Positions 4,259 through 23,337 of a stretch of DNA of 64,000 nucleotides are shown here, piece after piece. The stretch spans positions 512,001 through 576,000 of the forward strand of contig CP000067.1 in the NCBI GenBank assembly GCA_000002445.1, given 5' to 3'. Positions within the stretch are counted from its first letter, which is position 1, and the number at the start of each line of letters is the position of its first letter. A program made the translations under genes and the position numbers. Source of the stretch: Trypanosoma brucei (lineage: Eukaryota). The notes beneath the pieces are model-generated. The model was not told where the DNA came from. It made no database searches and worked only from the letters and a program-made list of their open reading frames with translations.

Positions 4259-5254
4259 GACTCTCCGGTAAGCTGACGTTGATAAAATGAATGCCCTTAG
4301 CTCGCTCTCTGTACGTATATATATATATCCTCTCACCTCCCTTCAGAGCACCTTTGAAACAAATACGCCAATGACAACAAACAACTGCCAACGAAAGATT
4401 TGAATGCACCTACAAAATGAGGTTACTCTAATATGACCAATAGGGTTACTGGGTGCTCATCGAAAAAAAAAAGCAGAGGAGTGTTAAACATACATATACA
4501 CCTTTTTCAAATGACTACAAAGTGCAAAGGTATCTGACAACTTCTCCCGACCAGCGTGGTATTATTATTATTATTTAAAAGCGCAAGAATTTGGGCGTAC
4601 TACCACAATATGTCGCACTCAGCATGCCCTGTGAACATATGTAATACGACAAAAGCACAAGCCATCACATGCCGCATCAACGGGGCGAAAAACCGAGTGC
4701 ACAAACGCAATCAATCACCCGATCAGTCCACCGTTTTTCAGGTGCCCCCCCCCCAAAAAACCACCTCATCACCAGAAGCATCAGAGACAGGAGGAAAGGC
4801 ATATATTACGCCTTCCAATAGCACTAAAATGCTGCCACCGCAGAATAGAGGCAGTTTGACCATACTGTTCCACTGGAGATTCAGTGGTAAACCGCCACGA
4901 ACTGATTTTGAAAGAAAAAACAAGCATTCGAACCCTTCCCCGACACCTACGTTAACAAATATAAGAGTAACGGAAAAACAGAAGAGTGCAACAGTGATAA
5001 GAAACACAATGCGCCACACCACCGTCAGATATTAGAAATGGCAAATTACACAGAAGTAAATGTTGATTCACTGAATAACAAAAAAAGGCTTCATACAGCA
5101 AAAACGTACATTGCAACGAAACACTGCACTTAAGTAAAAATAAAGGAACATCACCATACATCCAATAGAAAAAAATGTAAGTAGCAATAATACGTATTTA
5201 AAAATGTCAAAATTGTCAGCAACAAAGATGCTTACACGAACAGAAAAAAAAAGA

Positions 5255-8200
5255 CTACGCCTCATTTCCACGCAGTTCTTCACGAAGAGCTTTAACCTCA
5301 TCCTCTAGTCTCTTTATAACTAAGTCATTACACTTTCTCAGCTCCTCTTGAGACTCCACATAATACTTCATCGTCTCCTCCTGAACCCTTATAGACTCTC
5401 TCAGCTTTAGCACCCTCTTGGCCAGGACAGAACAAAGATGGCAATCATTAACATCGGACAGACTTGAAAGAAGAGAAGAACCTTCAAAAGCATCACCACT
5501 TCCACCACGATACGAAACACACAAAGACCCACAATCATCATTTATTTTGGACACAACAGCATCATCTTCTTCACAACGAGAAGCGGCAAGAGCCGAAGAA
5601 AGAGGAAAGCCAACTTCCTCCTTCACCTTAAGTGGGGGCACACAGGTACCCGCATCACCACCAGCACCCTCCGTGGCACCCCTTCGGTCGAGGTCAACTC
5701 CACCACCAAACAGGGAATTACTGCCATCCACAGGGCAAAGAACATTACTAGAAATCGCACCTCCAACGTTACCAGATTTTAAAAACACCACATCATGATC
5801 ATCGGAAACGACTCGACAACCCATAACTCTAAGAGCATCAGCAACACAATGACCAACTGTTTTTTCACAAAGAAAAGCACTATCCTTAGAAACCTTAACA
5901 TTCATATTATCCACAGTAGAATACGCAAAATCATTCACAGCACTCCCACAAACATTGGTACATTGCAGAGCTTCATACTTTTCATTCAAAGCCCGTAATG
6001 ATTTAAGTTCATCCTCCATGGCAGAATTCGAACGCCTCGCAGCTTCATACTGTTCATTCAAGGACCGTAATGATTTAAGTTCATCCTCCATTGCAGTATT
6101 ACTACGTTGTAGAGTTTCATACTGTTCATTCAAAGCTCGCAATGATTTAAGTTCATCCTCCATGTCAGAATTCGAACGTCTCGCAGCTTCATACTGTTCA
6201 TTCAAAGCTCGCAATGATTTAAGTTCATCCTCCATGGCAGAATTCGAACGCCTCGCAGCTTCATACTGTTCATTCAAGGACCGTAATGATTTAAGTTCAT
6301 CCTCCATGGCAGTATTACTACGTTGTAGAGTTTCATACTGTTCATTCAAAGCTCGCAATGATTTAAGTTCATCCTCCATGTCAGAATTCGAACGTCTCAC
6401 AGCTTCATACTGTTCATTCGCAGCTCGCAATGAATCAAGTTCTTCCTCCATGGCAGCATTGGTACGTTGCAGAGTTTCATACTGTTCATTCAAAGCTCGC
6501 AATGAATCAAGTTCTTCCTCCATGGCAGCATTGGTACGTTGAAGAGTTTCATACTGTTCATTCAAAGCTCGCAATGAATCAAGTTCATCCTCCATGGCAG
6601 CATTGGTACGTTGCAGAGTTTCATACTGTTCATTCAAAGCTCGCAATGAATCAAGTTCATCTTCCATGGCAGCATTGGTACGTTGCAGAGTTTCATACTG
6701 TTCATTCAAAGCTCGCAATGAATCAAGTTCATCTTCCATGGCAGCATTTAAATGCCGAAGTTCCTCAAGCTCCTCATTCACGGCCTTCTCTTCTTTAGAT
6801 TGCTCTCTTATACCCTCATCAAGTTCCTCAAGTCGGCTGAGATGTCGTTGAAGTGTTGATTCTTCTGTGGTTTCATGAGCTCCGCCAGCGGTGCCGCTAT
6901 TGTTAGCAGGCTTTTTATACTCCTCCATGACGCAATTGATTATTTCCCTTGATTTCTCCTTGATAAATTCGCAACGATATTCTGCCACTTCCTTGAGTCG
7001 TTCAATCTCCTTTAACTTCCTCTCTAGGTTGAGAATCTGCCCGGTCATTGTACTTATAACGTTCCCACTTTCATTGCATTCCCTCTTAAATTCCCTATAG
7101 ACGTTCAAGATATCTAGATCCTCAGCAACAACATCTCGCAATGAATCAAGTTCTTCCTCCATGGCAGCATTAGTACGCTGCAGAGTTTCATACTGTTCAT
7201 TCACAGCTCGCAATGAATCAAGTTCATCCTCCATAGCAGCATTAGTACGTTGCAGAGTTTCATACTGTTCATTCAAAGCTCGCAATGAATCAAGTTCTTC
7301 CTCCATGGCAGCATTGGCACGCTGCAGAGTTTCATACTGTTCATTCAAAGCTCGCAATGAATCAAGTTCTTCCTCCATGGCAGCATTAGTACGTTGCAGA
7401 GTTTCATACTCAGCAACAACATCTCGCAATGAATCGAGTTCATCCTCCATGGCAGCATTGGTACGTTGCAGAGTTTCATACTGTTCATTCACAGCTCGCA
7501 ATGAATCAAGTTCATCCTCCATGGCAGCATTGGTACGTTGCAGAGTTTCATACTGTTCATTCAAAGCTCGCAATGAATCAAGTTCTTCCTCCATGGCAGC
7601 ATTGGCACGCTGCAGAGTTTCATACTGTTCATTCACAGCTCGCAATGAATCAAGTTCATCCTCCATAGCAGCATTAGTACGTTGCAGAGTTTCATACTGT
7701 TCATTCACAGCTCGCAATGAATCAAGTTCATCTTCCATGGCAGCATTGGTACGTTGCAGAGTTTCATACTGTTCATTCACAGCTCGCAATGAATCAAGTT
7801 CATCCTCCATGGCAGCATTGGTACGTTGCAGAGTTTCATACTGTTCATTCAAAGCTCGCAATGAATCAAGTTCATCTTCCATGGCAGCATTAGTACGCTG
7901 CAGAGTTTCATACTGTTCATTCACAGCTCGCAATGAATCAAGTTCATCTTCCATGGCAGCATTGGCACGCTGCAGAGTTTCATACTGTTCATTCAAAGCT
8001 CGCAATGAATCAAGTTCATCCCCCATGGCAGCATTTAAATGCCGAAGTTCCTCAAGCTCCTCATTCACGGCCTTCTCTTCTTTAGATTGCTCTCTTATAC
8101 CCTCATCAAGTTCCTCAAGTCGGCTGAGATGTCGTTGAAGTGTTGATTCTTCTGTGGTTTCATGAGCTCCGCCAGCGGTGCCGCTATTGTTAGCAGGCTT

Positions 8201-11200
8201 TTTATACTCCTCCATGACGCAATTGATTATTTCCCTTGATTTCTCCTTGATAAATTCGCAACGATATTCTGCCACTTCCTTGAGTCGTTCAATCTCCTTT
8301 AACTTCCTCTCTAGGTTGAGAATCTGCCCGGTCATTGTACTTATAACGTTCCCACTTTCATTGCATTCCCTCTTAAATTCCCTATAGACGTTCAAGATAT
8401 CTAGATCCTCAGCAACAACATCTCGCAATGAATCGAGTTCTTCCTCCATGGCAGCATTAGTACGCTGCAGAGTTTCATACTGTTCATTCACAGCTCGCAA
8501 TGAATCAAGTTCATCCTCCATAGCAGCATTAGTACGTTGCAGAGTTTCATACTGTTCATTCAAAGCTCGCAATGAATCAAGTTCATCCTCCATGGCAGCA
8601 TTGGCACGCTGCAGAGTTTCATACTGTTCATTCAAAGCTCGCAATGAATCAAGTTCTTCCTCCATGGCAGCATTAGTACGTTGCAGAGTTTCATACTGTT
8701 CATTCAAAGCTCGCAATGAATCAAGTTCTTCCTCCATGGCAGCATGAGTACGTTGCAGAGTTTCATACTGTTCATTCAAAGCTCGCAATGAATCAAGTTC
8801 TTCCTCCATGGCAGCATGAGTACGTTGCAGAGTTTCATACTGTTCATTCAAAGCTCGCAATGAATCAAGTTCATCCTCCATAGCAGCGTTGGCACGCTGC
8901 AGAGTTTCATACTGTTCATTCACAGCTCGCAATGAATCAAGTTCATCTTCCATGGCAGCATTGGTACGTTGCAGAGTTTCATACTGTTCATTCACAGCTC
9001 GCAATGAATCAAGTTCATCCTCCATGGCAGCATTGGTACGTTGCAGAGTTTCATACTGTTCATTCACAGCTCGTAATGAATCAAGTTCATCTTCCATGGC
9101 AGCATTGGTACGTTGCAGAGTTTCATACTGTTCATTCAAAGCTCGCAATGAATCAAGTTCATCTTCCATGGCAGCATTTAAATGCCGAAGTTCCTCAAGC
9201 TCCTCATTCACGGCCTTCTCTTCTTTAGATTGCTCTCTTATACCCTCATCAAGTTCCTCAAGTCGGCTGAGATGTCGTTGAAGTGTTGATTCTTCTGTGG
9301 TTTCATGAGCTCCGCCAGCGGTGCCGCTATTGTTAGCAGGCTTTTTATACTCCTCCATGACGCAATTGATTATTTCCCTTGATTTCTCCTTGATAAATTC
9401 GCAACGATATTCTGCCACTTCCTTGAGTCGTTCAATCTCCTTTAACTTCCTCTCTAGGTTGAGAATCTGCCCGGTCATTGTACTTATAACGTTCCCACTT
9501 TCATTGCATTCCCTCTTAAATTCCCTATAGACGTTCAAGATATCTAGATCCTCAGCAACAACATCTCGCAATGAATCGAGTTCTTCCTCCATGGCAGCAT
9601 TAGTACGCTGCAGAGTTTCATACTGTTCATTCACAGCTCGCAATGAATCAAGTTCATCCTCCATAGCAGCATTAGTACGTTGCAGAGTTTCATACTGTTC
9701 ATTCAAAGCTCGCAATGAATCAAGTTCATCCTCCATGGCAGCATTGGCACGCTGCAGAGTTTCATACTGTTCATTCAAAGCTCGCAATGAATCAAGTTCT
9801 TCCTCCATGGCAGCATTAGTACGTTGCAGAGTTTCATACTGTTCATTCAAAGCTCGCAATGAATCAAGTTCTTCCTCCATGGCAGCATTAGTACGTTGCA
9901 GAGTTTCATACTGTTCATTCAAAGCTCGCAATGAATCAAGTTCTTCCTCCATGGCAGCATGAGTACGTTGCAGAGTTTCATACTGTTCATTCAAAGCTCG
10001 CAATGAATCAAGTTCTTCCTCCATGGCAGCATGAGTACGTTGCAGAGTTTCATACTGTTCATTCAAAGCTCGCAATGAATCAAGTTCTTCCTCCATGGCA
10101 GCATTAGTACGTTGCAGAGTTTCATACTGTTCATTCAAAGCTCGCAATGAATCAAGTTCATCCTCCATAGCAGCGTTGGCACGCTGCAGAGTTTCATACT
10201 GTTCATTCACAGCTCGCAATGAATCAAGTTCATCTTCCATGGCAGCATTGGTACGTTGCAGAGTTTCATACTGTTCATTCACAGCTCGCAATGAATCAAG
10301 TTCATCCTCCATGGCAGCATTGGTACGTTGCAGAGTTTCATACTGTTCATTCACAGCTCGTAATGAATCAAGTTCATCTTCCATGGCAGCATTGGTACGT
10401 TGCAGAGTTTCATACTGTTCATTCAAAGCTCGCAATGAATCAAGTTCATCTTCCATGGCAGCATTTAAATGCCGAAGTTCCTCAAGCTCCTCATTCACGG
10501 CCTTCTCTTCTTTAGATTGCTCTCTTATACCCTCATCAAGTTCCTCAAGTCGGCTGAGATGTCGTTGAAGTGTTGATTCTTCTGTGGTTTCATGAGCTCC
10601 GCCAGCGGTGCCGCTATTGTTAGCAGGCTTTTTATACTCCTCCATGACGCAATTGATTATTTCCCTTGATTTCTCCTTGATAAATTCGCAACGATATTCT
10701 GCCACTTCCTTGAGTCGTTCAATCTCCTTTAACTTCCTCTCTAGGTTGAGAATCTGCCCGGTCATTGTACTTATAACGTTCCCACTTTCATTGCATTCCC
10801 TCTTAAATTCCCTATAGACGTTCAAGATATCTAGATCCTCAGCAACAACATCTCGCAATGAATCGAGTTCTTCCTCCATGGCAGCATTAGTACGCTGCAG
10901 AGTTTCATACTGTTCATTCACAGCTCGCAATGAATCAAGTTCATCCTCCATAGCAGCATTAGTACGTTGCAGAGTTTCATACTGTTCATTCAAAGCTCGC
11001 AATGAATCAAGTTCATCCTCCATGGCAGCATTGGCACGCTGCAGAGTTTCATACTGTTCATTCAAAGCTCGCAATGAATCAAGTTCTTCCTCCATGGCAG
11101 CATTAGTACGTTGCAGAGTTTCATACTGTTCATTCAAAGCTCGCAATGAATCAAGTTCTTCCTCCATGGCAGCATTAGTACGTTGCAGAGTTTCATACTG

Positions 11201-14200
11201 TTCATTCAAAGCTCGCAATGAATCAAGTTCTTCCTCCATGGCAGCATGAGTACGTTGCAGAGTTTCATACTGTTCATTCAAAGCTCGCAATGAATCAAGT
11301 TCTTCCTCCATGGCAGCATGAGTACGTTGCAGAGTTTCATACTGTTCATTCAAAGCTCGCAATGAATCAAGTTCTTCCTCCATGGCAGCATTAGTACGTT
11401 GCAGAGTTTCATACTGTTCATTCAAAGCTCGCAATGAATCAAGTTCATCCTCCATAGCAGCGTTGGCACGCTGCAGAGTTTCATACTGTTCATTCACAGC
11501 TCGCAATGAATCAAGTTCATCTTCCATGGCAGCATTGGTACGTTGCAGAGTTTCATACTGTTCATTCACAGCTCGCAATGAATCAAGTTCATCCTCCATG
11601 GCAGCATTGGTACGTTGCAGAGTTTCATACTGTTCATTCACAGCTCGTAATGAATCAAGTTCATCTTCCATGGCAGCATTGGTACGTTGCAGAGTTTCAT
11701 ACTGTTCATTCAAAGCTCGCAATGAATCAAGTTCATCTTCCATGGCAGCATTTAAATGCCGAAGTTCCTCAAGCTCCTCATTCACGGCCTTCTCTTCTTT
11801 AGATTGCTCTCTTATACCCTCATCAAGTTCCTCAAGTCGGCTGAGATGTCGTTGAAGTGTTGATTCTTCTGTGGTTTCATGAGCTCCGCCAGCGGTGCCG
11901 CTATTGTTAGCAGGCTTTTTATACTCCTCCATGACGCAATTGATTATTTCCCTTGATTTCTCCTTGATAAATTCGCAACGATATTCTGCCACTTCCTTGA
12001 GTCGTTCAATCTCCTTTAACTTCCTCTCTAGGTTGAGAATCTGCCCGGTCATTGTACTTATAACGTTCCCACTTTCATTGCATTCCCTCTTAAATTCCCT
12101 ATAGACGTTCAAGATATCTAGATCCTCAGCAACAACATCTCGCAATGAATCGAGTTCTTCCTCCATGGCAGCATTAGTACGCTGCAGAGTTTCATACTGT
12201 TCATTCACAGCTCGCAATGAATCAAGTTCATCTTCCATGGCAGCATTGGTACGTTGCAGAGTTTCATACTGTTCATTCAAAGCTCGCAATGAATCAAGTT
12301 CTTCCTCCATGGCAGCATTAGTACGTTGAAGAGTTTCATACTGTTCATTCGCAGCTCGCAATGAATCAAGTTCATCTTCCATGGCAGCATTGGTACGTTG
12401 CAGAGTTTCGTACTGTTCATTCGCAGCTCGCAATGAATCAAGTTCATCTTCCATGGCAGCATTAGTACGTTGCAGAGTTTCATACTGTTCATTCAAAGCT
12501 CGCAATGAATCAAGTTCTTCCTCCATGGCAGCATTAGTACGTTGAAGAGTTTCATACTGTTCATTCGCAGCTCGCAATGAATCAAGTTCTTCCTCCATGG
12601 CAGCATTGGTACGTTGCAGAGTTTCGTACTGTTCATTCACAGCTCGCAATGAATCAAGTTCTTCCTCCATGGCAGCATTAGTACGTTGCAGAGTTTCATA
12701 CTGTTCATTCGCAGCTCGCAATGAATCAAGTTCTTCCTCCATGGCAGCATTAGTACGTTGCAGAGTTTCATACTGTTCATTCGCAGCTCGCAATGAATCA
12801 AGTTCTTCCTCCATGGCAGCATTGGCACGCTGCAGAGTTTCATACTGTTCATTCGCAGCTCGCAATGAATCAAGTTCATCTTCCATGGCAGCATTGGTAC
12901 GTTGCAGAGTTTCATACTGTTCATTCAAAGCTCGCAATGAATCAAGTTCTTCCTCCATGGCAGCATTAGTACGTTGCAGAGTTTCATACTGTTCATTCAA
13001 AGCTCGCAGCGAATCAAGTTCATCCTCCATAGCAGCATTGGTACGTTGTAGAGCTTCATACTGTTCATTCACAGCTCGCAGCGAATCAAGTTCTTCCTCC
13101 ATGGCAGCATTAGTACGTTGTAGAGTTTCATACTGTTCATTCACAGCTCGCAGCGAATCAAGTTCATCCTCCATAGCAGCATTGGTACGTTGTAGAGCTT
13201 CATACTGTTCATTCACAGCTCTCAGTGAATCAAGTTCTTCCTCCATGGCAGCATTGGTACGTTGTAGAGCTTCATACTGTTCATTCACAGCTCTCAGTGA
13301 ATCAAGTTCTTCCTCCATGGCAGCATTAGTACGTTGTAGAGTTTCATACTGTTCATTCACAGCTCGCAATGAATCAAGTTCTTCCTCCATGGCAGCATTG
13401 GTACGTTGCAGAGTTTCATACTGTTCATTCACAGCTCTCAATGAATCAAGTTCATCCTCCATGGCAGCATTGGTACGTTGCAGAGTTTCATACTGTTCAT
13501 TCAAAGCTCGCAATGAATCAAGTTCTTCCTCCATGGCAGCATTAGTACGTTGCAGAGTTTCATACTGTTCATTCAAAGCTCGCAGCGAATCAAGTTCATC
13601 CTCCATAGCAGCATTGGTACGTTGTAGAGCTTCATACTGTTCATTCACAGCTCGCAGCGAATCAAGTTCTTCCTCCATGGCAGCATTAGTACGTTGTAGA
13701 GTTTCATACTGTTCATTCACAGCTCGCAGCGAATCAAGTTCATCCTCCATAGCAGCATTGGTACGTTGTAGAGCTTCATACTGTTCATTCACAGCTCTCA
13801 GTGAATCAAGTTCTTCCTCCATGGCAGCATTGGTACGTTGTAGAGCTTCATACTGTTCATTCACAGCTCTCAGTGAATCAAGTTCTTCCTCCATGGCAGC
13901 ATTAGTACGTTGTAGAGTTTCATACTGTTCATTCACAGCTCGCAATGAATCAAGTTCTTCCTCCATGGCAGCATTGGTACGTTGCAGAGTTTCATACTGT
14001 TCATTCACAGCTCTCAATGAATCAAGTTCATCCTCCATGGCAGCATTGGTACGTTGCAGAGTTTCATACTGTTCATTCACAGCTCGCAATGAATCAAGTT
14101 CATCCTCCATGGCAGCATGAGTACGTTGCAGAGTTTCATACTGTTCATTCACAGCTCGCAATGAATCAAGTTCATCCTCCATGGCAGCATTGGTACGTTG

Positions 14201-17200
14201 CAGAGTTTCATACTGTTCATTCAAAGCTCGTAATGAATCAAGTTCTTCCTCCATGGCAGCATTAGTACGTTGTAGAGTTTCATACTGTTCATTCACAGCT
14301 CGCAATGAATCAAGTTCATCCTCCATAGCAGCATTGGTACGTTGCAGAGTTTCATACTGTTCATTCAAAGCTCGTAATGAATCAAGTTCTTCCTCCATGG
14401 CAGCATTAGTACGTTGAAGAGTTTCATACTGTTCATTCGCAGCTCGTAACGAATCAAGTTCATCCTCCATGGCAGCATTGGTACGTTGCAGAGTTTCATA
14501 CTGTTCCTTCAAAGCTCTCAGTGAATCAAGTTCATCCTCCATGGCAGCATTAGTACGTTGCAGAGTTTCATACTGTTCATTCGCAGCTCTCAGTGAATCA
14601 AGTTCATCCTCCATGGCAGCATTAGTACGTTGAAGAGTTTCATACTGTTCATTCAAAGCTCTCAGTGAATCAAGTTCATCCTCCATGGCAGCATGAGTAC
14701 GTTGAAGAGTTTCATACTGTTCATTCGCAGCTCTCAGTGAATCAAGTTCTTCCTCCATGGCAGCATTAGTACGTTGAAGAGTTTCATACTGTTCATTCAA
14801 AGCTCGCAATGAATCAAGTTCATCTTCCATAACAGCATTAGTACGTTGCAGAGTTTCATACTGCTCATTCAAAGCTCTCAGTGAATCAAGTTCTTCCTCC
14901 ATGGCAGCATTAGTACGTTGAAGAGTTTCATACTGTTCATTCGCAGCTCTCAGTGAATCAAGTTCTTCCTCCATGGCAGCATTAGTACGTTGTAGAGTTT
15001 CATACTGTTCATTCGCAGCTCTCAGTGAATCAAGTTCATTCTGTATTTTATCGTTTGTTGTTCTATCTTCTTTCAGTTGCTTTGGTGTAGCTTGCAGTGG
15101 TTGTTGTTCAATAGCTACTCTGGTGTCTTTATTGCTGTCTTCTTTATACTGTTCATTCAAAGCTCTCAGTGAATCGAGTTCATTTATTATATCTTCGTTG
15201 GTGCGGCGGAGATTTTCATATTGTTCATTCACAGCTCTCAGTGAATCAAGTTCTTCCTCCATGTTGGGGTCGAAGTGCCGCGTGCTTCTTCCTCTTTTTT
15301 TTAATGCCCGTAAATACTCGAGTTGAGCTTCTACTTCGGCATTCAGTTGCTGAAGTATTTTGTACTCTTCTGTGTATTTTCTTTTTTCTGCTATATCGCG
15401 TTCATCGTCAATAATCTTCTCTTTTGTGTTTTTTTCCTGTTTTTTCAGTATACGATGCGTAGGTTGATCTTTTTCGGCACTTATGTTTACATGCTGCAGA
15501 GTTTCACACTGTTCTTTGAAAGCTCGTAACAACTTAAGCTCATTCCCCATATCCTCATTTGTCCGTCTTGCTGCTTTAAGTTCCTTTTGAACGACCCACA
15601 GTGGTTGGTTGCCAACTCCAATATCAGCAGTGGTACGTTGCAGAGCTTCATACTGTTCATTCGCAGCTCGTAACGAATCAAGTTCATCCTCCATGGCAGC
15701 ATTGGTACGTTGCATAGCTTCATACTGTTCATTCACAGCTCGCAATGAATCAAGTTCATCCTCCATAGCAGCATTGGTACGTTGCATAGCTTCATACTGT
15801 TCATTCACAGCTCTCAATGAATCAAGTTCATCCTCTATGGCAGCATTGGTACGTTGCATAGCTTCATACTGTTCATTCACAGCTCTCAATGAATCAAGTT
15901 CATCCTCTATGGCAGCATTGGTACGTTGCATAGCTTCATACTGTTCATTCACAGCTCGCAACGAATCAAGTTCATCCTCCATGGCAGCATTGGTACGTTG
16001 CAGAGTTTCATACTGTTCATTCACAGCTCGCAATGAATCAAGTTCATCCTCCATAGCAGCATTGGTACGTTGCATAGCTTCATACTGTTCATTCACAGCT
16101 CTCAATGAATCAAGTTCATCCTCCATGGCAGCATTGGTACGTTGCAGAGTTTCATACTGTTCATTCAAAGCTCGCAATGAATCAAGTTCTTCCTCCATGG
16201 CAGCATTAGTACGTTGCAGAGTTTCATACTGTTCATTCACAGCTCGTAATGAATCAAGTTCATCCTCTATGGCAGCATTGGTACGTTGCATAGCTTCATA
16301 CTGTTCATTCACAGCTCTCAATGAATCAAGTTCATCCTCTATGGCAGCATTGGTACGTTGCGCGGTATCTTTGTTGACTGTGCTTTCAATGGAAATTATA
16401 CGCTGTTGTTGTTGCTGAGACTGGCTCTCTACGTCAGCGGCAAACTCTGTACAACATTGAGTTGGGTTTGACTCCTTCGTTTTTTTTATTTTTGGGGATG
16501 GCTGTTGTTTTTTGCTTCTTTTATGTGGTGTTTGGTCGGCTTTATACTTTGTTAACTTGAGGTGCTCTCGGGCCTCCTTACTGTCCGCTTGTGTTTTGCG
16601 TACTTTATGTGTTTTATCCTTTTCCTCTCTGCTTATTTTTGTTGCTACTTCTTTTTTACTCTTTTTGTGATCAACTGCCGTTCGTGCGGTAAGCTTTTTT
16701 GTAGTGCGTGCCCCTTCTTCCCTATCGCTTGTGACTGAATTGCTGCTAATGTTTGCTGCTGATGGCAACCTCTTTAGTATTTCTCCCCCCTCGTTTGTGT
16801 ATGTCTTGTCTTCATTTTCTTTGGGGAGGTGTGTGTCACTCTGGGAACGAGGGGAATCTGTGTGCTCTTGTGCTTCTGAAGAAATTATAGCTGTCCCCTT
16901 CCCTTTCTTCTTCGCTGCAGTTGCTTTGGTGGATGTCTTGGATAAACGTGACTGCTTACCGGTATCGTGATCCCCAGTAGCGTCGACATCCGTATTAGCT
17001 GCTGCCGTGTGTGTGTCTTTTGTATTTGTTACCCGACTGTGCGCTGACCGAGCCGCGTCGCTTTGCGAAAACCCGCACATCCCCTTGTCATCCTTTTCCT
17101 CATCAGCCGTAACAACCAGGGGGCCGTGCCGACCTGTGTGAATCGCTGCATTGGTGGACTTTCTTTCCTGATCGGGGACCATCCCGTGTCGGTCGTCCAA

Positions 17201-18622
17201 TCCCTCCTCCATACTGTTTCTCTCCTCCAGGAACCGTTGGAGTTCGATTGTATGCTTGAAGCTCCCTTCAGAACAAGGAAGTTGGTTATGTTGCGTGGAA
17301 ACATCCTCTCCTTGTGTAGCGACCAATAAACCTCCTTCATCGATAGCGTTTTGCAGCTTCTTTATTATTCCCTCCAACATATCATTGGTCCTTTGAAGCT
17401 CCTCAAGGGAATGGATCAACTCGCCCTGTCGCCTCGCAGACTCTTCCTCCGCCTTCTGAGCCTCTTCCAACTGGCCTCGGAGGACTTTGTTCTCTCTCTC
17501 ACAAATAGCCAACTGTTGCAGAAGCGTTCTGTTTTCACTCCGAATGTTCTCCATTTCTGTTCGAAGTTCAGCCGCATCCTTCTCCACAACCTTTATTCGT
17601 TCGTCCTCGTCGACACTGTGCTGACCACGTTCTAACGAAGCGTCACTGCACGCTCCCACAACATCCGGCTTACTAGAAGACAAGCCCACCTTGTTTTTGG
17701 AATTCACATACTTGAGGCTGTCGGATTGCAACGTGATGTACCTCCACAGCTCTGACCGGTGAATTGTCGCTATTTTGGGGATGCTGCCTTCTATCAACGC
17801 TGTCGGGATGATAGAAGATCGAAGAATGGTTTTCTCTGGCATCGGTAGGTCATCGAGGGCGTTCCCCCCTTCAACCGCCGCAAGACGATCCTGAATATCC
17901 CTGATAGCAAGGACAATACGTTCCAGATGTTCTTGGGAAGATGCAGCTAGCGTAGTGGCTGCCACATGGTTATGATTCACGTAGTTTAGCTGAGCCTTCA
18001 CCCATTGATGGAGTGGCCCCGCAGCACGTGACGCCACCGAAGCATCGTCGTCGCTGATATCGTTGCTCCTGCAGCGCTTGATGATCTCGTTTCGGCGCTC
18101 GGGAGGCAGCTTTGAAGGGTCAAAACTGAGGACACGTGCTATAAAGCCCGGTTGCCTGAGTTGTGCGCGCAGCTCAGCCCAAGTAGAGGTGGGTAAAGTG
18201 ATACCCAATATAATGAGAATGTCATCCAATATTTTCCTTACAATGGGCGGTGGTGACACATATGACTGAAGCTCTCGGAAGCAAGCACCTTCGATTCCTT
18301 CAACCATGGTGTTAGCACGCTCAACTTGGATTCTCAACGATGCGATACGCTCCTCCTCAACGGCTGCTCTTCCATTCCGTAGTTGTTGGCGTAGTGCAAG
18401 CAGTTGCTCTTTATATGCGGTTGCCCTCTCATCCACGTCTTGTGAAGGGCTATTGTTTGCTACGGAAACACGAGCCACATAATCGGAAAGAAATGTTACA
18501 TACCCCTTCTCGTAGCACCAAGAATCGTCTCTCAGCGTATCAAACGCAACTAAGTCACCGACAGAGACGACATCAGATTTCACTTGAGATAATACTGATT
18601 CATCAAACTCCAAGATCTCCAT
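5255..18622 (-). CDS. Giant repetitive coiled-coil protein (4455 aa) with an N-terminal dynein-stalk microtubule-binding-like domain and ~140 copies of a 24-aa repeat
   Basis: A single uninterrupted 13,368-nt ORF. The N-terminus (aa ~75–250) aligns by eye to dynein heavy chain CC1–MTBD–CC2 (YVSPPPIVRKILDDILIILG…TWAELRAQLRQPGFIARVLSFDPSKLPPERRNEIIKRCRSNDIS…ASRAAGPLHQWVKAQLNYV). The middle is a 24-aa repeat, consensus roughly AMEEELDSLRALNEQYETLQRTNA. The C-terminus is ~330 aa of unique sequence. This position between ALBA and CC2D matches my recollection of a T. brucei 'antigenic protein, putative'. Confidence 0.85.
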   Translation of the reverse strand: MEILEFDESVLSQVKSDVVSVGDLVAFDTLRDDSWCYEKGYVTFLSDYVARVSVANNSPSQDVDERATAYKEQLLALRQQLRNGRAAVEEERIASLRIQVERANTMVEGIEGACFRELQSYVSPPPIVRKILDDILIILGITLPTSTWAELRAQLRQPGFIARVLSFDPSKLPPERRNEIIKRCRSNDISDDDASVASRAAGPLHQWVKAQLNYVNHNHVAATTLAASSQEHLERIVLAIRDIQDRLAAVEGGNALDDLPMPEKTILRSSIIPTALIEGSIPKIATIHRSELWRYITLQSDSLKYVNSKNKVGLSSSKPDVVGACSDASLERGQHSVDEDERIKVVEKDAAELRTEMENIRSENRTLLQQLAICERENKVLRGQLEEAQKAEEESARRQGELIHSLEELQRTNDMLEGIIKKLQNAIDEGGLLVATQGEDVSTQHNQLPCSEGSFKHTIELQRFLEERNSMEEGLDDRHGMVPDQERKSTNAAIHTGRHGPLVVTADEEKDDKGMCGFSQSDAARSAHSRVTNTKDTHTAAANTDVDATGDHDTGKQSRLSKTSTKATAAKKKGKGTAIISSEAQEHTDSPRSQSDTHLPKENEDKTYTNEGGEILKRLPSAANISSNSVTSDREEGARTTKKLTARTAVDHKKSKKEVATKISREEKDKTHKVRKTQADSKEAREHLKLTKYKADQTPHKRSKKQQPSPKIKKTKESNPTQCCTEFAADVESQSQQQQQRIISIESTVNKDTAQRTNAAIEDELDSLRAVNEQYEAMQRTNAAIEDELDSLRAVNEQYETLQRTNAAMEEELDSLRALNEQYETLQRTNAAMEDELDSLRAVNEQYEAMQRTNAAMEDELDSLRAVNEQYETLQRTNAAMEDELDSLRAVNEQYEAMQRTNAAIEDELDSLRAVNEQYEAMQRTNAAIEDELDSLRAVNEQYEAMQRTNAAMEDELDSLRAVNEQYEAMQRTNAAMEDELDSLRAANEQYEALQRTTADIGVGNQPLWVVQKELKAARRTNEDMGNELKLLRAFKEQCETLQHVNISAEKDQPTHRILKKQEKNTKEKIIDDERDIAEKRKYTEEYKILQQLNAEVEAQLEYLRALKKRGRSTRHFDPNMEEELDSLRAVNEQYENLRRTNEDIINELDSLRALNEQYKEDSNKDTRVAIEQQPLQATPKQLKEDRTTNDKIQNELDSLRAANEQYETLQRTNAAMEEELDSLRAANEQYETLQRTNAAMEEELDSLRALNEQYETLQRTNAVMEDELDSLRALNEQYETLQRTNAAMEEELDSLRAANEQYETLQRTHAAMEDELDSLRALNEQYETLQRTNAAMEDELDSLRAANEQYETLQRTNAAMEDELDSLRALKEQYETLQRTNAAMEDELDSLRAANEQYETLQRTNAAMEEELDSLRALNEQYETLQRTNAAMEDELDSLRAVNEQYETLQRTNAAMEEELDSLRALNEQYETLQRTNAAMEDELDSLRAVNEQYETLQRTHAAMEDELDSLRAVNEQYETLQRTNAAMEDELDSLRAVNEQYETLQRTNAAMEEELDSLRAVNEQYETLQRTNAAMEEELDSLRAVNEQYEALQRTNAAMEEELDSLRAVNEQYEALQRTNAAMEDELDSLRAVNEQYETLQRTNAAMEEELDSLRAVNEQYEALQRTNAAMEDELDSLRALNEQYETLQRTNAAMEEELDSLRALNEQYETLQRTNAAMEDELDSLRAVNEQYETLQRTNAAMEEELDSLRAVNEQYETLQRTNAAMEEELDSLRAVNEQYEALQRTNAAMEEELDSLRAVNEQYEALQRTNAAMEDELDSLRAVNEQYETLQRTNAAMEEELDSLRAVNEQYEALQRTNAAMEDELDSLRALNEQYETLQRTNAAMEEELDSLRALNEQYETLQRTNAAMEDELDSLRAANEQYETLQRANAAMEEELDSLRAANEQYETLQRTNAAMEEELDSLRAANEQYETLQRTNAAMEEELDSLRAVNEQYETLQRTNAAMEEELDSLRAANEQYETLQRTNAAMEEELDSLRALNEQYETLQRTNAAMEDELDSLRAANEQYETLQRTNAAMEDELDSLRAANEQYETLQRTNAAMEEELDSLRALNEQYETLQRTNAAMEDELDSLRAVNEQYETLQRTNAAMEEELDSLRDVVAEDLDILNVYREFKRECNESGNVISTMTGQILNLERKLKEIERLKEVAEYRCEFIKEKSREIINCVMEEYKKPANNSGTAGGAHETTEESTLQRHLSRLEELDEGIREQSKEEKAVNEELEELRHLNAAMEDELDSLRALNEQYETLQRTNAAMEDELDSLRAVNEQYETLQRTNAAMEDELDSLRAVNEQYETLQRTNAAMEDELDSLRAVNEQYETLQRANAAMEDELDSLRALNEQYETLQRTNAAMEEELDSLRALNEQYETLQRTHAAMEEELDSLRALNEQYETLQRTHAAMEEELDSLRALNEQYETLQRTNAAMEEELDSLRALNEQYETLQRTNAAMEEELDSLRALNEQYETLQRANAAMEDELDSLRALNEQYETLQRTNAAMEDELDSLRAVNEQYETLQRTNAAMEEELDSLRDVVAEDLDILNVYREFKRECNESGNVISTMTGQILNLERKLKEIERLKEVAEYRCEFIKEKSREIINCVMEEYKKPANNSGTAGGAHETTEESTLQRHLSRLEELDEGIREQSKEEKAVNEELEELRHLNAAMEDELDSLRALNEQYETLQRTNAAMEDELDSLRAVNEQYETLQRTNAAMEDELDSLRAVNEQYETLQRTNAAMEDELDSLRAVNEQYETLQRANAAMEDELDSLRALNEQYETLQRTNAAMEEELDSLRALNEQYETLQRTHAAMEEELDSLRALNEQYETLQRTHAAMEEELDSLRALNEQYETLQRTNAAMEEELDSLRALNEQYETLQRTNAAMEEELDSLRALNEQYETLQRANAAMEDELDSLRALNEQYETLQRTNAAMEDELDSLRAVNEQYETLQRTNAAMEEELDSLRDVVAEDLDILNVYREFKRECNESGNVISTMTGQILNLERKLKEIERLKEVAEYRCEFIKEKSREIINCVMEEYKKPANNSGTAGGAHETTEESTLQRHLSRLEELDEGIREQSKEEKAVNEELEELRHLNAAMEDELDSLRALNEQYETLQRTNAAMEDELDSLRAVNEQYETLQRTNAAMEDELDSLRAVNEQYETLQRTNAAMEDELDSLRAVNEQYETLQRANAAMEDELDSLRALNEQYETLQRTHAAMEEELDSLRALNEQYETLQRTHAAMEEELDSLRALNEQYETLQRTNAAMEEELDSLRALNEQYETLQRANAAMEDELDSLRALNEQYETLQRTNAAMEDELDSLRAVNEQYETLQRTNAAMEEELDSLRDVVAEDLDILNVYREFKRECNESGNVISTMTGQILNLERKLKEIERLKEVAEYRCEFIKEKSREIINCVMEEYKKPANNSGTAGGAHETTEESTLQRHLSRLEELDEGIREQSKEEKAVNEELEELRHLNAAMGDELDSLRALNEQYETLQRANAAMEDELDSLRAVNEQYETLQRTNAAMEDELDSLRALNEQYETLQRTNAAMEDELDSLRAVNEQYETLQRTNAAMEDELDSLRAVNEQYETLQRTNAAMEDELDSLRAVNEQYETLQRANAAMEEELDSLRALNEQYETLQRTNAAMEDELDSLRAVNEQYETLQRTNAAMEDELDSLRDVVAEYETLQRTNAAMEEELDSLRALNEQYETLQRANAAMEEELDSLRALNEQYETLQRTNAAMEDELDSLRAVNEQYETLQRTNAAMEEELDSLRDVVAEDLDILNVYREFKRECNESGNVISTMTGQILNLERKLKEIERLKEVAEYRCEFIKEKSREIINCVMEEYKKPANNSGTAGGAHETTEESTLQRHLSRLEELDEGIREQSKEEKAVNEELEELRHLNAAMEDELDSLRALNEQYETLQRTNAAMEDELDSLRALNEQYETLQRTNAAMEDELDSLRALNEQYETLQRTNAAMEEELDSLRALNEQYETLQRTNAAMEEELDSLRAANEQYEAVRRSNSDMEDELKSLRALNEQYETLQRSNTAMEDELKSLRSLNEQYEAARRSNSAMEDELKSLRALNEQYEAARRSNSDMEDELKSLRALNEQYETLQRSNTAMEDELKSLRSLNEQYEAARRSNSAMEDELKSLRALNEKYEALQCTNVCGSAVNDFAYSTVDNMNVKVSKDSAFLCEKTVGHCVADALRVMGCRVVSDDHDVVFLKSGNVGGAISSNVLCPVDGSNSLFGGGVDLDRRGATEGAGGDAGTCVPPLKVKEEVGFPLSSALAASRCEEDDAVVSKINDDCGSLCVSYRGGSGDAFEGSSLLSSLSDVNDCHLCSVLAKRVLKLRESIRVQEETMKYYVESQEELRKCNDLVIKRLEDEVKALREELRGNEA
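5955..16420 (-). repeat. Tandem array of a 72-bp (24-codon) in-frame coding repeat, ~140 copies (~10.4 kb)
   Basis: The plus strand shows the 72-mer 'ccatggcagcattggtacgttgcagagtttcatactgttcattcacagctcgcaatgaatcaagttcatcctc' iterated. Copies near the centre are almost identical; copies at both edges are degenerate (E→K, A/V/L and T/A variants). Confidence 0.95.
6710..12140 (-). repeat. Higher-order tandem repeat: 5 copies of a ~1287-bp unit (one copy 1143 bp)
   Basis: Each unit is a ~130-aa unique block plus ~12 of the 72-bp repeats. Identical plus-strand 69-aa ORFs recur at 6891, 8178, 9321, 10608 and 11895 (spacing 1287, 1143, 1287, 1287). Identical 98/157-aa ORFs recur at 8932, 10219 and 11506. 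The units starting at 9321, 10608 and 11895 appear essentially base-identical. The protein shows the block 'DVVAEDLDILNVYREFKRECNESGNV…LEELRHLN' five times plus one truncated junction ('DVVAEYETLQ'). Confidence 0.9.
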
Positions 18623-20616: not shown

Positions 20617-23337
20617 CTAATGGGTATTCATAGCCATTAGAACATCAACGCAGTGGAGACTCTCTGGGCTGTTCATTTCCACCCTTTTTTGTAATTCTTT
20701 AAAGCGAATGTTATCTTCTTCTATTTGCGCCAAGGTTGGCGTGGATAGCATACCGAAGTCATCACTTTGTAAGGTGACCTCCACCTCCGCCGCCCGCCTT
20801 GCATCCCGTGTTCCTGGATTTTGAGCAACAATCGCGACGCGTTGACGAGGTACACCGCGGTGAAGGGTAGCCATGGTAAAAGCCGCGTCACCGACATGGT
20901 GCTCTCGTGAATTCCCCTTGGATTTGTAAAAAACGTGGAGTGTAATAACGTCTTCGTCAGGTTGAGCAAGATAAAAGTAAAAAGTCTCATTAAATCTTAT
21001 AGCAGAGCTTAATTCCTTGACAGAGGTTTTGTACTTTTCCTTCACGGATTTTACCTTTATAACGACGTATCCAGGCTCAATAATCGGACGTCCGTTCTTC
21101 ATTAAGTCCCTTAACTCAACAATCGTAACTGCGAGGTGGGCTCCGGCTGCAACGGCGTTCTTTTTTTTATCGGCTAGATGGGGAGACGCCGGCGGGTAGG
21201 CGAGTTGCTCCATAGATCGTCTCCGGGCACTGCGCCTGGTGCTTCTAGAATTTCTTCTTGATTGGTGGCGTTGACCCTCCTGTCGCTCATCTTTAATAGA
21301 AACAAGTTGCTTCCACAGTCCATCATTTGCCTCTCTCAAAGCGAACAGCTGATCATTTAATTCTTGAAGCTTCTTATCCCTCTTTTCTGCGACCTCGGAC
21401 TGCTCCTTTTGTGCGAGGGCCTCTTCAAGTCTTCTCATTCTACTCTCAATCCCACTCCCCCTCATTGGTTCACCTTGAACAATGCCCAGACCGTCATTGG
21501 TCAGATGCCTCTTTAAAACGCTTAAAGATTCCTGAAGCTCATGTATTCTATTCTCCTTACTTTTGTTAGCATGCCGCAAGTCAACGATCTCATTACTAAG
21601 GCGATTCTTCTCTGACTGAAGAAGCTGCAAGCTATTTTGTCGCTGTTCCGTCTCTTTGTAAAAGTCTTGCAGTGACATACGCCTCATTTTCCTTTTCGCT
21701 TCATCTTCCTCCGACCATGCTGTCTCCAGGGATCGCATAAAATCCTCAGTCGAGTCCAACTTATCTTTCAAAAACTTATCAATGACAGTTGCTTCAGAAA
21801 CTCCTCTCGTTCGGGGCCTCTGCTCATTTTCCCCATTTCCCAAATCATTGCTATCATGGGCCAACTCCCCCGCGGAATTATTCCTAGAGTTACGTAAAAG
21901 CAGACGCTGCTGAAGGGATTCGTTCTGCAAAAGTAGTTTGGCTATTTCCGCCTGATACTCACTCCTACTGGATTCACTCGCAGCCAGTTGCTCCTCATTC
22001 GCAGCTTTCAGAGAGGAAATTTGCCTTGTATACTCGAGCAATGAATCACGGAGTTGCTCATTCTCATCTAGAACCGCCTTCATTTCATGTACATCGTAGC
22101 ACCTGGAGTCTTTTTCTCTGTTGATATTGTATCCTTTCTGCAAGGAAAGCTCCTTCTCTGTGGAAACAAGGGCAATTTCTAGCTCCTTCACACGCACCTC
22201 AAGATCGTTGTATTCCTCTTCGGCACGCGAGTTCCGAAGGTGAAGGTGTTCGATTTCCTTATGGAGCTCTTCATTTTCCCTCATAAGTAATTCATTCTTT
22301 CTGCTAATGTTACCATTGAGCACTTCGAGTGATTGGATCCGGCTCTCCCTTGAGGCATCACTATCATCAATTTCGCTCACTTTGTCGTCAACATCATCCA
22401 CTGAGGGGTCGCCCAGGCGCAACTTATTCTTCATGCGGCCTGGTTTCCTCTCTTCCCGGAAGACGGTGACTTCGTGCTTGAAGGAATCCAACTGATGTTG
22501 TATTGCCCGGTAAACATCGCCCCCAGTTCCAATATTATTGCCTTGAAGTGTGCTTATCTCGACCCGTAACGCGGCCTCCATTTCCCGCCACTCACGCTCC
22601 TTCGCACGATAACGTTCCTCAGCAAGCTGTAGTTTCTCCTCGAGCTCGGCAATATCTTCCTTAAGAAGGGCCTGCTGAAGATGTTGATTGCTTCCACGGG
22701 TCTTCACGTCCCAGTTCTCTCTCTGTTGGGCAGTGCCATCGAATCGCTTTACGGACGCAAGCAGCTCTTCATAATCTTGAAGGTTTCGGGATCTTTCGTT
22801 TTCCCAAGTCTCTTTTGCAAGAAGCCATTGATGCTGCACTTCATGAAGTTGTTCCTCCAGCTCTGCGTTTCTTTTCTTTAGTAGTGACACTTGCAGGTCA
22901 TTTTTTTCCTGTTGTTCATTTATATTTTTACATCTTTGGTCAAGGTGGCTTTCACGCTGTTGAGCCTTATTAAGTAACCCCCGAAGCTCATGAACTTCCG
23001 AACGCAGAGAACTGTTTTCTTCAATTAGTTTAACTGCTTCGGCTCTAAATGAAGTTCCTGATGTATCAGCAGTTTCCCCAGATTTCAACTTCATGAGTAA
23101 AGCGTTATTTTCTTCCTCAAGGACCCTCGCATTTCTGTTCGCAAGAATCAGCTTTCCTTCAACATCGCTCAGTTCCTTTAGCTGTTGTCGTAAGTCCCTG
23201 AGGCGAACCTCTTGCTCATACTCGTTGAGCTCCTTGGCGGCAAGTTGTTCCTTCAGACTGGCACAAAGATCACTGAGCTCATCTATTGATTGTCTGTCAT
23301 CAAAGATAGGCTGCTGACCAAAATCAACCTGCTGCAT
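20617..23337 (-). CDS. CC2D: Coiled-coil and C2-domain protein (906 aa); flagellum attachment zone (FAZ) filament protein CC2D
   Basis: The N-terminal ~650 aa is coiled coil. The C-terminus has a C2-domain-like β-sandwich (…HLAVTIVELRDLMKNGRPIIEPGYVVIKVKSVKEKYKTSVKELSSAIRFNETFYFYLAQPDEDVITLHVFYKSKGNSREHHVGDAAFTMATLHRG…). This architecture and the ALBA3/4-adjacent position match T. brucei CC2D as I recall it. Confidence 0.75.
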   Translation of the reverse strand: MQQVDFGQQPIFDDRQSIDELSDLCASLKEQLAAKELNEYEQEVRLRDLRQQLKELSDVEGKLILANRNARVLEEENNALLMKLKSGETADTSGTSFRAEAVKLIEENSSLRSEVHELRGLLNKAQQRESHLDQRCKNINEQQEKNDLQVSLLKKRNAELEEQLHEVQHQWLLAKETWENERSRNLQDYEELLASVKRFDGTAQQRENWDVKTRGSNQHLQQALLKEDIAELEEKLQLAEERYRAKEREWREMEAALRVEISTLQGNNIGTGGDVYRAIQHQLDSFKHEVTVFREERKPGRMKNKLRLGDPSVDDVDDKVSEIDDSDASRESRIQSLEVLNGNISRKNELLMRENEELHKEIEHLHLRNSRAEEEYNDLEVRVKELEIALVSTEKELSLQKGYNINREKDSRCYDVHEMKAVLDENEQLRDSLLEYTRQISSLKAANEEQLAASESSRSEYQAEIAKLLLQNESLQQRLLLRNSRNNSAGELAHDSNDLGNGENEQRPRTRGVSEATVIDKFLKDKLDSTEDFMRSLETAWSEEDEAKRKMRRMSLQDFYKETEQRQNSLQLLQSEKNRLSNEIVDLRHANKSKENRIHELQESLSVLKRHLTNDGLGIVQGEPMRGSGIESRMRRLEEALAQKEQSEVAEKRDKKLQELNDQLFALREANDGLWKQLVSIKDERQEGQRHQSRRNSRSTRRSARRRSMEQLAYPPASPHLADKKKNAVAAGAHLAVTIVELRDLMKNGRPIIEPGYVVIKVKSVKEKYKTSVKELSSAIRFNETFYFYLAQPDEDVITLHVFYKSKGNSREHHVGDAAFTMATLHRGVPRQRVAIVAQNPGTRDARRAAEVEVTLQSDDFGMLSTPTLAQIEEDNIRFKELQKRVEMNSPESLHCVDVLMAMNTH

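Follow-up and report, generated by a model that had tools for sequence, protein, structure and literature searches.

A dynein-type stalk tip without a motor at the N terminus of the giant repetitive protein Tb927.4.2070 of Trypanosoma brucei

Introduction

A dynein-type head would offer a concrete and mutable candidate element by which giant repetitive proteins of the flagellum attachment zone (FAZ) and the cortex of trypanosomes attach to microtubules. The sequence considered here is a stretch of 64,000 nucleotides of Trypanosoma brucei DNA (assembly GCA_000002445.1, contig CP000067.1, positions 512,001 to 576,000), hereafter the window, in which a single open reading frame (ORF) of 4455 amino acids (aa) runs without interruption at 5255..18622 on the minus strand. 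The C-terminal tagging primer published for Tb927.4.2070 (PMC3313915) matches this ORF at 87/87 bases at 5258-5344(-), and the ORF was therefore identified as the whole gene Tb927.4.2070, also named "AGP" (antigenic protein). A preliminary description, made from the sequence alone, had placed dynein heavy chain's microtubule-binding domain (MTBD) and its stalk helices at residues ~120-220 of this protein. The analysis described below indicates that the N-terminal 275 residues are a genuine copy of the dynein stalk tip without the motor. Tb927.4.2070 would accordingly be read as a non-motor microtubule-associated protein, in which the head serves as a static microtubule anchor on a long rod, a reading to which a probability of about 0.6 is given.

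Identification of a dynein stalk tip in Tb927.4.2070

Residues 1-300 were compared by phmmer with 177,635 PDB sequences. The sequences matched were mainly stalk/MTBD chains of dynein heavy chains; all the matches at E<0.3 were dynein, and a few unrelated chains appeared only at E 0.3-1.2. The top matches (6rzb_C, E=9.8e-11; 3err_A, 1e-10; 5ayh_A, 1.3e-10) were aligned with residues 68-216 of the query, and the matches were ordered from mouse and yeast cytoplasmic dynein-1 (E~1e-10) through dynein-2 (~1e-8) to axonemal dyneins (1e-6 to 1e-3). A total of 628 matches at E<=1e-3 were obtained by phmmer with residues 1-270 against 1.84 billion representative proteins, including full-length dyneins (E~1e-14) that were aligned exactly at their stalk tips. 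The profile built from 31 family members (see below) matched dynein-1 at E=2e-47. The match was strongest in the globular MTBD and weaker in the coiled coil, and the stretch alignable to full-length dyneins was ~200 aa, the stalk tip alone. The region 17870-18420 marked in the preliminary description corresponds to residues ~68-251, and the peptide strings quoted there are present as written. The claim that the core aligns without gaps was nearly right, the HMMER alignment containing one 2-residue gap and one 1-residue gap.

A Pfam scan of all 4455 residues detected neither AAA+ nor any other dynein domain, in agreement with the earlier remark that the protein lacks an AAA+ ring, and the repeats gave only summed coiled-coil noise. 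The Pfam model of the stalk region, PF12777, gave no match at E<=1 (aa 1-400) nor at E<=0.01 (aa 1-275), and because it misses this copy Tb927.4.2070 carries no dynein-domain annotation; the same model matches 22 of the 31 family members at E<=0.01, with the best E value at 8e-24. The Pfam check proposed with the preliminary description thus yielded no dynein match, and phmmer yielded significant ones. A hidden Markov model of the family, run against the six-frame translation of the window, detected a single copy of the module, with 242 bits, on the Tb927.4.2070 ORF.

Structure of the head

The structure of residues 1-275 was predicted by AlphaFold2 (AF2) using an alignment of the 31 family sequences (A1). 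This model, with a predicted local distance difference test score (pLDDT) of 88.6 and a predicted TM score of 0.70, replaces a single-sequence model with a pLDDT of 42.8. By Foldseek against the PDB, 49 of the 49 best matches were dynein stalk/MTBD structures, for example 8ptk_e (E=9e-10) and 6kio_M (TM score 0.73; 2.6 Å over 124 columns). Of the two yeast MTBD forms, the high-affinity one (6kjn, 3.1 Å) was slightly closer to the model than the low-affinity one (6kjo, 4.8 Å), which is weak evidence in favour of a microtubule anchor. The predicted fold, a six-helix head on an antiparallel hairpin, together with the phmmer and Foldseek matches, bears out the proposed location of the MTBD and stalk helices.

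The head begins with a small β-domain at aa ~18-57 (18452..18571 on the minus strand, as for all parts of this gene), which carries the motif VGDxVAxD/E...WxW/Y.xG.V conserved in the 31 family members of A1. The AF2 strands of this domain span residues 24-31, 34-45 and 49-55, with pLDDT ~90; this domain at the base of the hairpin, seen in both the family alignment and the AF2 model, was missed by the preliminary description. It is followed by the outgoing stalk helix CC1 (aa 59-108; 18299..18448), a continuous helix with pLDDT >90 that aligns to dynein CC1, and then by the MTBD core of six short helices (aa 112-218; 17969..18289), in which P124, W148, S198 and W207 are invariant across the 31 members. 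In the model, the returning stalk helix CC2 (aa 227-256; 17855..17944) begins after a short break (aa 219-226) at the site of the CC2 proline of dynein. The suggestion in the preliminary description that the coiled coils on both sides of the MTBD could be CC1 and CC2 is thus supported by the alignment to dynein and the AF2 model. The head ends with two returning β-strands within aa 263-273 (EKTILRSSIIP; 17804..17836), predicted at 263-267 and 271-273 with pLDDT 75-88, and the orthologues of T. vivax, T. theileri and T. cruzi in A1 retain the EKTILRSSII motif. From the order of the secondary-structure elements in the model, these strands are likely to complete the N-terminal β-domain and to clasp the hairpin base at the place where dynein has AAA4.

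Where the stalk of dynein joins the MTBD, CC1 and CC2 each carry a conserved proline, in staggered position, that is linked to registry communication. By the phmmer alignment, I98 and T223 stand at what we take to be the positions of these two prolines, P3285 and P3409 in mouse numbering. Both positions are devoid of proline in the Trypanosoma clade, and both prolines are kept in several other clades of A1, for example in P0009, P0012, P0055, P0060 and P0130.

Orthologues and the kinetoplastid head family

The search for orthologues suggested with the preliminary description identified the same N-terminus in four other Trypanosoma species, with a head identity of 56% in T. vivax and 43-44% in T. 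theileri, T. cruzi and T. conorhini; all these orthologues are annotated as "antigenic protein" or hypothetical. The N-terminus of an independent T. brucei record (P0001) is 100% identical. Although their repeat sequences are unrelated, the orthologues of T. vivax and T. cruzi retain a repeat period of 24 aa; the period is 28 aa in Angomonas. Because the Trypanosoma orthologues share nothing but the period in their repeats, the head represents the conserved part of the protein.

True dynein fragments were separated from non-dyneins by BLAST of the 150 best matches against the 27 full-length dyneins among them, and the members of the non-dynein class are dynein-like over only ~200-300 residues. 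At least 26 further non-dynein proteins carry the β-domain motif followed by CC1-MTBD-CC2, and in Tb927.4.2070 the motif (VGDxVAxE/D...WxWxLGxV) is likewise located directly before CC1-MTBD-CC2. One of these proteins, P0029 of T. theileri, is annotated as "microtubule-associated protein Gb4, partial" and contains seven FAZ1_cons domains; its Phytomonas relative P0132 contains 14, and both share the head of β-domain, CC1, MTBD and CC2. Two FAZ1_cons domains each were found in P0018 of Angomonas, annotated as "Microtubule-binding stalk of dynein motor, putative", and in P0047 of Lotmaria, which also carries the MTBD head. P0037, an 853-aa T. theileri protein, is mis-named "dynein heavy chain, cytosolic". 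FAZ1_cons, the former Pfam-B 506, is a feature of some clades only, and the Pfam scan of 4455 aa detected no match to it in the tail of Tb927.4.2070. As judged from these sequences, the MTBD head module is the defining element of a multi-paralogue kinetoplastid family of giant, probably cytoskeletal proteins.

P0012 and P0044 (L002:6001-10149) combine the β-clasp and MTBD head with a PH domain and an inositol polyphosphate 5-phosphatase, an arrangement that suggests a lipid phosphatase tethered to microtubules. Both are on metagenome contigs with dense, mostly same-strand genes. Another group of motor-less proteins, composed of 2-5 tandem bare MTBDs without the coiled-coil stalk, was found in Picozoa, Cyanophora paradoxa, Gefionella okellyi, Fabomonas tropica and marine metagenomes and transcriptomes (P0011 at L003:6001-8241, P0006, P0007, P0013, P0014, P0015, P0020 and P0028). 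This is apparently a second motor-less use of the dynein MTBD that has not been described.

The mL100 chain of the Leishmania mitoribosome

When the family profile was run against the PDB, one non-dynein sequence was matched over the whole head (E=1.1e-41): "mL100", chain BG of 7AIH, 7AM2 and 7ANE, the large subunit of the L. tarentolae mitoribosome. Profile positions 9-287 were aligned with mL100 residues 5-272, and a profile of the β-domain only gave 7aih_BG as its sole PDB match (E=1.6e-9). In BLASTP, mL100 showed 24% identity to T. brucei aa 21-214 (E=4e-10). The protein is 1347 aa long, with acidic coiled-coil repeats after the head, and its MTBD core carries PSP in place of PPP. P0144 of Angomonas deanei is a clear counterpart of mL100 (E=2e-111); it is the one match to the T. 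brucei head that takes in the β-domain and yet is too diverged for a BLAST match to dyneins. P0044, P0079 and P0029 had been considered as the subfamily behind the mL100 match, but the PDB queries showed this to be wrong and P0144 proved to be the counterpart.

A rough neighbour-joining tree placed mL100 with P0144 as sister to the Trypanosoma AGP clade, and the motifs VA(F/Y)D and LH.W are common to both groups. A FAZ8-like gene adjoins the AGP/mL100-like gene of Angomonas, but it is located upstream, and FAZ8 of T. brucei is located downstream. Taken from these sequence relations, mL100 is the probable Leishmaniinae orthologue of Tb927.4.2070. Among the best structural matches of the AF2 model in Foldseek mL100 was absent, and phmmer with aa 1-300 detected no match of the Tb927.4.2070 head to the T. 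brucei mitoribosome chains in the PDB. For a mitoribosomal protein, a dynein MTBD head on a giant and acidic coiled coil would be odd, and the identity of 7AIH chain BG as mL100 is worth re-inspection.

In Angomonas deanei, two tandem genes of 1308 and 790 aa (L001:4646-8572 and L001:10001-12373) carry the same head; this pair may have arisen by recent duplication, or may be one giant gene split artificially by repeat collapse.

A proposed static microtubule anchor and its alternatives

The head would be arranged in the order of small β-domain, ~50-residue CC1, six-helix MTBD, CC2 and two β-strands that rejoin the β-domain, and thereby hold the antiparallel coiled coil together at its base. 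The AAA+ ring of dynein holds the stalk base and slides CC1 against CC2, switching the affinity for microtubules. In Tb927.4.2070 a passive clasp would take the place of the ring, and the head, fixed in one registry, would bind the tubulin lattice statically; such fixation is considered most likely because the clasp would replace the ring and because the stalk prolines are lost in the Trypanosoma clade. Behind the head, a partly basic linker of ~480 residues leads to the 24-aa repeats, ~3,450 residues in all. A rod of ~0.5 µm would result if the coiled coil ran without a break through the repeats (as calculated here with ~0.15 nm for each residue), and in the case of a parallel dimer both heads would lie at the same end. 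Since the module is common to paralogous giant cytoskeletal proteins, including one annotated as GB4, it would serve across the family as a portable anchor that fastens long tails, structural or enzymatic, to microtubules.

The MTBD core of Tb927.4.2070 has a net charge of +2, the dynein range being +1 to +5. Among the 10 positions that are basic in dynein-1-type MTBDs, and that we take from the literature to map to the dynein-tubulin interface, four are kept in Tb927.4.2070 (R129, R152, R156 and R199). In proximity labelling (BioID) with TbPLK, the protein was found only in the NP-40-insoluble cytoskeletal pellet (PMC4551316).

Several observations weigh against a microtubule anchor. The other six of the 10 basic positions are non-basic in T. 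brucei (E111, G112, Q119, Q157, V196 and Q206), and the MTBD core of mL100 is acidic, with a net charge of -4 versus +2 in T. brucei. The endogenous tag, the only published tag pattern, was scored "CYTO" and not as corset or FAZ (PMC4551316). Tb927.4.2070 co-purifies with EIF4E3/EIF4G4 (PMC9585242) and was detected in the Alba4 proximity proteome (PMC10998879), and the chain deposited as a mitoribosomal protein is likely to be its Leishmania orthologue. The link to GB4 is drawn from the database name of a T. theileri protein and its domain content, not from the T. brucei GB4 sequence, and the number of repeats may be affected by the assembly of a 10-kb tandem array. As for the earlier proposal that the MTBD was co-opted as the attachment end of a giant coiled coil, the location of the head on such a coiled coil stands; the attachment to microtubules is putative, several basic positions being lost and the tag signal being cytoplasmic.

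Several of these points would also fit a dynein-like head repurposed for ribosomes, mitoribosomes or messenger ribonucleoprotein granules, by which Tb927.4.2070 would be a giant scaffold for translation or mRNA storage and not a cytoskeletal anchor. Besides the translation-related partners, the cytoplasmic signal and the loss of basic residues, such a function is favoured by the deposition of the Angomonas P0144 counterpart as chain BG of 7aih/7am2/7ane, with its sister position to the Trypanosoma clade and its FAZ8-like neighbour. We regard it as unlikely, however. Pull-downs and gradients are frequently contaminated by coiled-coil proteins that are large, abundant and sticky, and the main text of the 7AIH paper does not mention mL100. 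The N-terminus of the T. brucei protein is acidic by translation and is predicted to fold into the β-domain, without an obvious mitochondrial presequence. The recovery of Tb927.4.2070 in the cytoskeletal pellet fraction and the cytoskeletal annotations of other paralogues also argue against it.

The head might instead be a degenerating relic without specific binding, a folded cap or oligomerisation element of a protein whose main feature is its immunogenic repeats. The failure of PF12777 to detect this copy, the loss of two stalk prolines and several basic surface positions in the Trypanosoma clade, and "antigenic protein" as the sole annotation are consistent with such decay. The head is, however, the best-conserved part of the protein across Trypanosoma (43-56% identity) while the repeats have diverged completely, the four residues P124, W148, S198 and W207 have remained invariant in 31 family members, and AF2 predicts a well-packed domain; a relic is therefore quite improbable.

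A force-generating motor along the subpellicular microtubules, after the "alternative pull" model in which "dynein motor domains" of FAZ1/FAZ10 were proposed to drive FAZ elongation (PMC7394968), is contradicted for Tb927.4.2070 by the lack of any Pfam-detectable ATPase domain, no AAA+ module, linker or ATPase motif being detected in 4455 aa, and by the restriction of the ~200 aligned residues to the stalk tip alone. An artefact in the form of a chance coiled coil, a frameshifted fusion of a dynein fragment or an assembly chimera is hardly conceivable: spurious matches to dynein, myosin or spectrin are common among coiled-coil proteins, and noise of such kind was given by Pfam in the repeats and may also underlie the published "dynein stalk" calls made by Phyre2 for FAZ2 and FAZ8, but here the match is strongest in the globular MTBD, the same N-terminus is present in P0001 and in four other Trypanosoma species, the window contains no other dynein-like sequence, and a frameshift or fusion is refuted by phmmer (both against the PDB and 1.84 billion representatives), AF2, Foldseek and the continuous ORF.

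Comparison with known microtubule-associated proteins

The head is homologous to dynein heavy chain (mouse DYNC1H1 aa ~3260-3450; 3ERR, 5AYH and 6RZB; yeast 6KIO/6KJN), with the same CC1/CC2 hairpin and six-helix head. Shared features are the PP motif at the start of helix 1 (H1), the tryptophans W148 and W207, and the signature "AAGP..W..AQLNY" of helix 6 (H6). Unlike dynein, Tb927.4.2070 is devoid of AAA+ ring, linker, buttress and tail, its stalk is short (~30-50 residues per strand as modelled), and the stalk base is predicted to be closed by the small β-domain and not by AAA4.

In GB4, as in Tb927.4.2070, a few hundred unique residues form an N-terminal head, and tandem repeats make up the very long tail behind it. 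The T. brucei GB4 consists of a 752-aa unique head and 37 repeats of 200 aa (PMC5397161), and is described, in the passages of PMC13544905 and PMC5397161 that cite Rindisbacher et al. 1993, as a marker of the microtubule plus end and posterior of the subpellicular corset, in which capacity it is employed in experiments (PMC13544905). GB4 differs from Tb927.4.2070 in belonging to a different paralogue clade, in its 200-aa repeats with FAZ1_cons and in its established localisation. The former Pfam-B 506 domain was reported in GB4, FAZ1, FAZ8 and others (PMC4406125).

FAZ1 and FAZ10, compared here by description, are likewise giant repetitive cytoskeletal proteins of kinetoplastids. Phyre2 templates of "dynein motor/stalk" were reported at their N-termini (Trépout 2020; PMC7394968 and its supplement), and the active-pulling model was built on them, so that the published reading is an active motor domain. 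The antigens MARP-1/2, I/6, WCB and CAP5.5 of the subpellicular corset are large, repetitive and acidic, and are associated with the cytoskeleton (PMC8625193). MARPs bind microtubules through the repeats themselves (PMC8625193), whereas the candidate for this role in Tb927.4.2070 is a discrete folded head of dynein type; the 24-aa repeats, being acidic, are unlikely to bind the acidic tails of tubulin.

The view in the preliminary description that a motor-less MTBD is not a described architecture was overstated. The protein belongs to a kinetoplastid family of which some paralogues are auto-annotated as "microtubule-binding stalk of dynein motor", and that view is also undercut by the Phyre2 matches in FAZ1/FAZ10 (PMC7394968), by mL100 in the PDB and by the motor-less MTBD proteins of other protists. 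In the literature no paper was found that describes a motor-less dynein MTBD as a module of microtubule-associated proteins, and the domain in Tb927.4.2070 itself appears to be unreported. New here would be a known domain in a family-wide non-motor context, together with the closing element, the β-clasp, predicted by the model.

It is tentatively proposed, at somewhat less than even odds, that the dynein stalk tip has been exapted as a portable, motor-independent module: a β-clasped and registry-locked docking head of GB4, AGP/Tb927.4.2070 and possibly FAZ1/FAZ10, as well as of enzymes such as the inositol 5-phosphatase, with tandem bare MTBDs serving as microtubule-associated proteins in Picozoa, glaucophytes, malawimonads and ancyromonads. 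If this is true, it would give a structural explanation for microtubule binding by long-known microtubule-associated proteins of trypanosomes, and the dynein MTBD would be available in affinity states "frozen" by nature. According to PMC8625193, the Gb4 repeats are of unknown function. A stalk tip without ATPase, passively clasped and without the hinge prolines, would represent a natural experiment that separates the features of the MTBD needed for binding from those needed for allostery. FAZ proteins have been described in print as carrying "dynein motor domains"; this view would be corrected in that, at least within the MTBD-head family, no motor is present.

Linker, repeat array and C-terminal region

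The head is followed by a non-repetitive linker at aa 274-755 (16358..17803), defined by translation and composition and without Pfam match, in which a short acidic coiled coil is located at aa ~341-440. Between head and repeats, a lysine-rich low-complexity stretch with a net charge of +8 extends over aa ~561-790 (16358-16900 on the minus strand) and includes KKKGKG, KKSKK and HKRSKKQQPSPKIKKTKE. From its composition, this stretch could be a second, electrostatic element for binding to microtubules or RNA.

The repeat array (5953..16357) is composed of a 72-nt unit encoding 24 aa (RTNAAMEDELDSLRAVNEQYETLQ) in ~145 copies (Tandem Repeats Finder: period 72, 144.9 copies; for the effect of assembly on this number see above). 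A pattern search showed that a unique insert of ~130 aa (DVVAEDLDILNVYREFKRE...) breaks the array five times, at aa 2162, 2591, 3020, 3401 and 3830. The spacings of the inserts, 429, 429, 381 and 429 aa, imply recent amplification of super-repeats of ~1.3 kb.

The C-terminal non-repeat region (aa ~4224-4455; 5258..5952), as seen in the translation, ends with a short coiled coil. It gave no significant Pfam match, and the C-terminal 326 aa had no relative among the PDB sequences.

Neighbouring genes and the remainder of the window

The upstream neighbour at 20617..23337 on the minus strand encodes a protein of coiled coil and C2 domain (Pfam C2, E=1.9e-10 at aa 734-829); its ORF is located at the place expected for Tb927.4.2080, named CC2D (PMC4551316). 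The downstream neighbour at 2498..4336 on the minus strand contains a FAZ1_cons domain (Pfam PF23398, E=8.5e-30) and corresponds to Tb927.4.2060, named FAZ8 (PMC4406125). FAZ1_cons of FAZ8 is also found in the tails of several paralogues with the MTBD head (GB4-type, P0018 and P0047). CC2D, AGP and FAZ8 are thus three successive genes on the same strand, each for a large coiled-coil protein with cytoskeletal links. The preliminary description had taken the CC2D neighbour as a sign of a shared cytoskeletal context: the C2-domain neighbour was confirmed and FAZ8 was added on the other side, but gene neighbourhood is weak evidence in the polycistronic genomes of trypanosomes.

Scans of the window for tRNA and Rfam families gave no match. 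Between the minus-strand block on the left and a plus-strand block on the right, a segment of 11.5 kb (23338-34878) contains no ORF of >=200 aa, and the sign of GC skew flips at ~28 kb inside this segment, which has the look of a divergent strand-switch region. Beyond ~34.9 kb, unrelated genes are located on the plus strand, encoding PP2C, WD40, leucine-rich repeat, CFAP58-like coiled-coil, GTPase and Sec7 guanine nucleotide exchange factor proteins. Among these, the 1011-aa ORF at 41391-44426 (+) contains a central coiled coil of CFAP58 type (Pfam E=2.2e-12) and is likely to be a gene for a flagellar protein, unrelated to the Tb927.4.2070 head.

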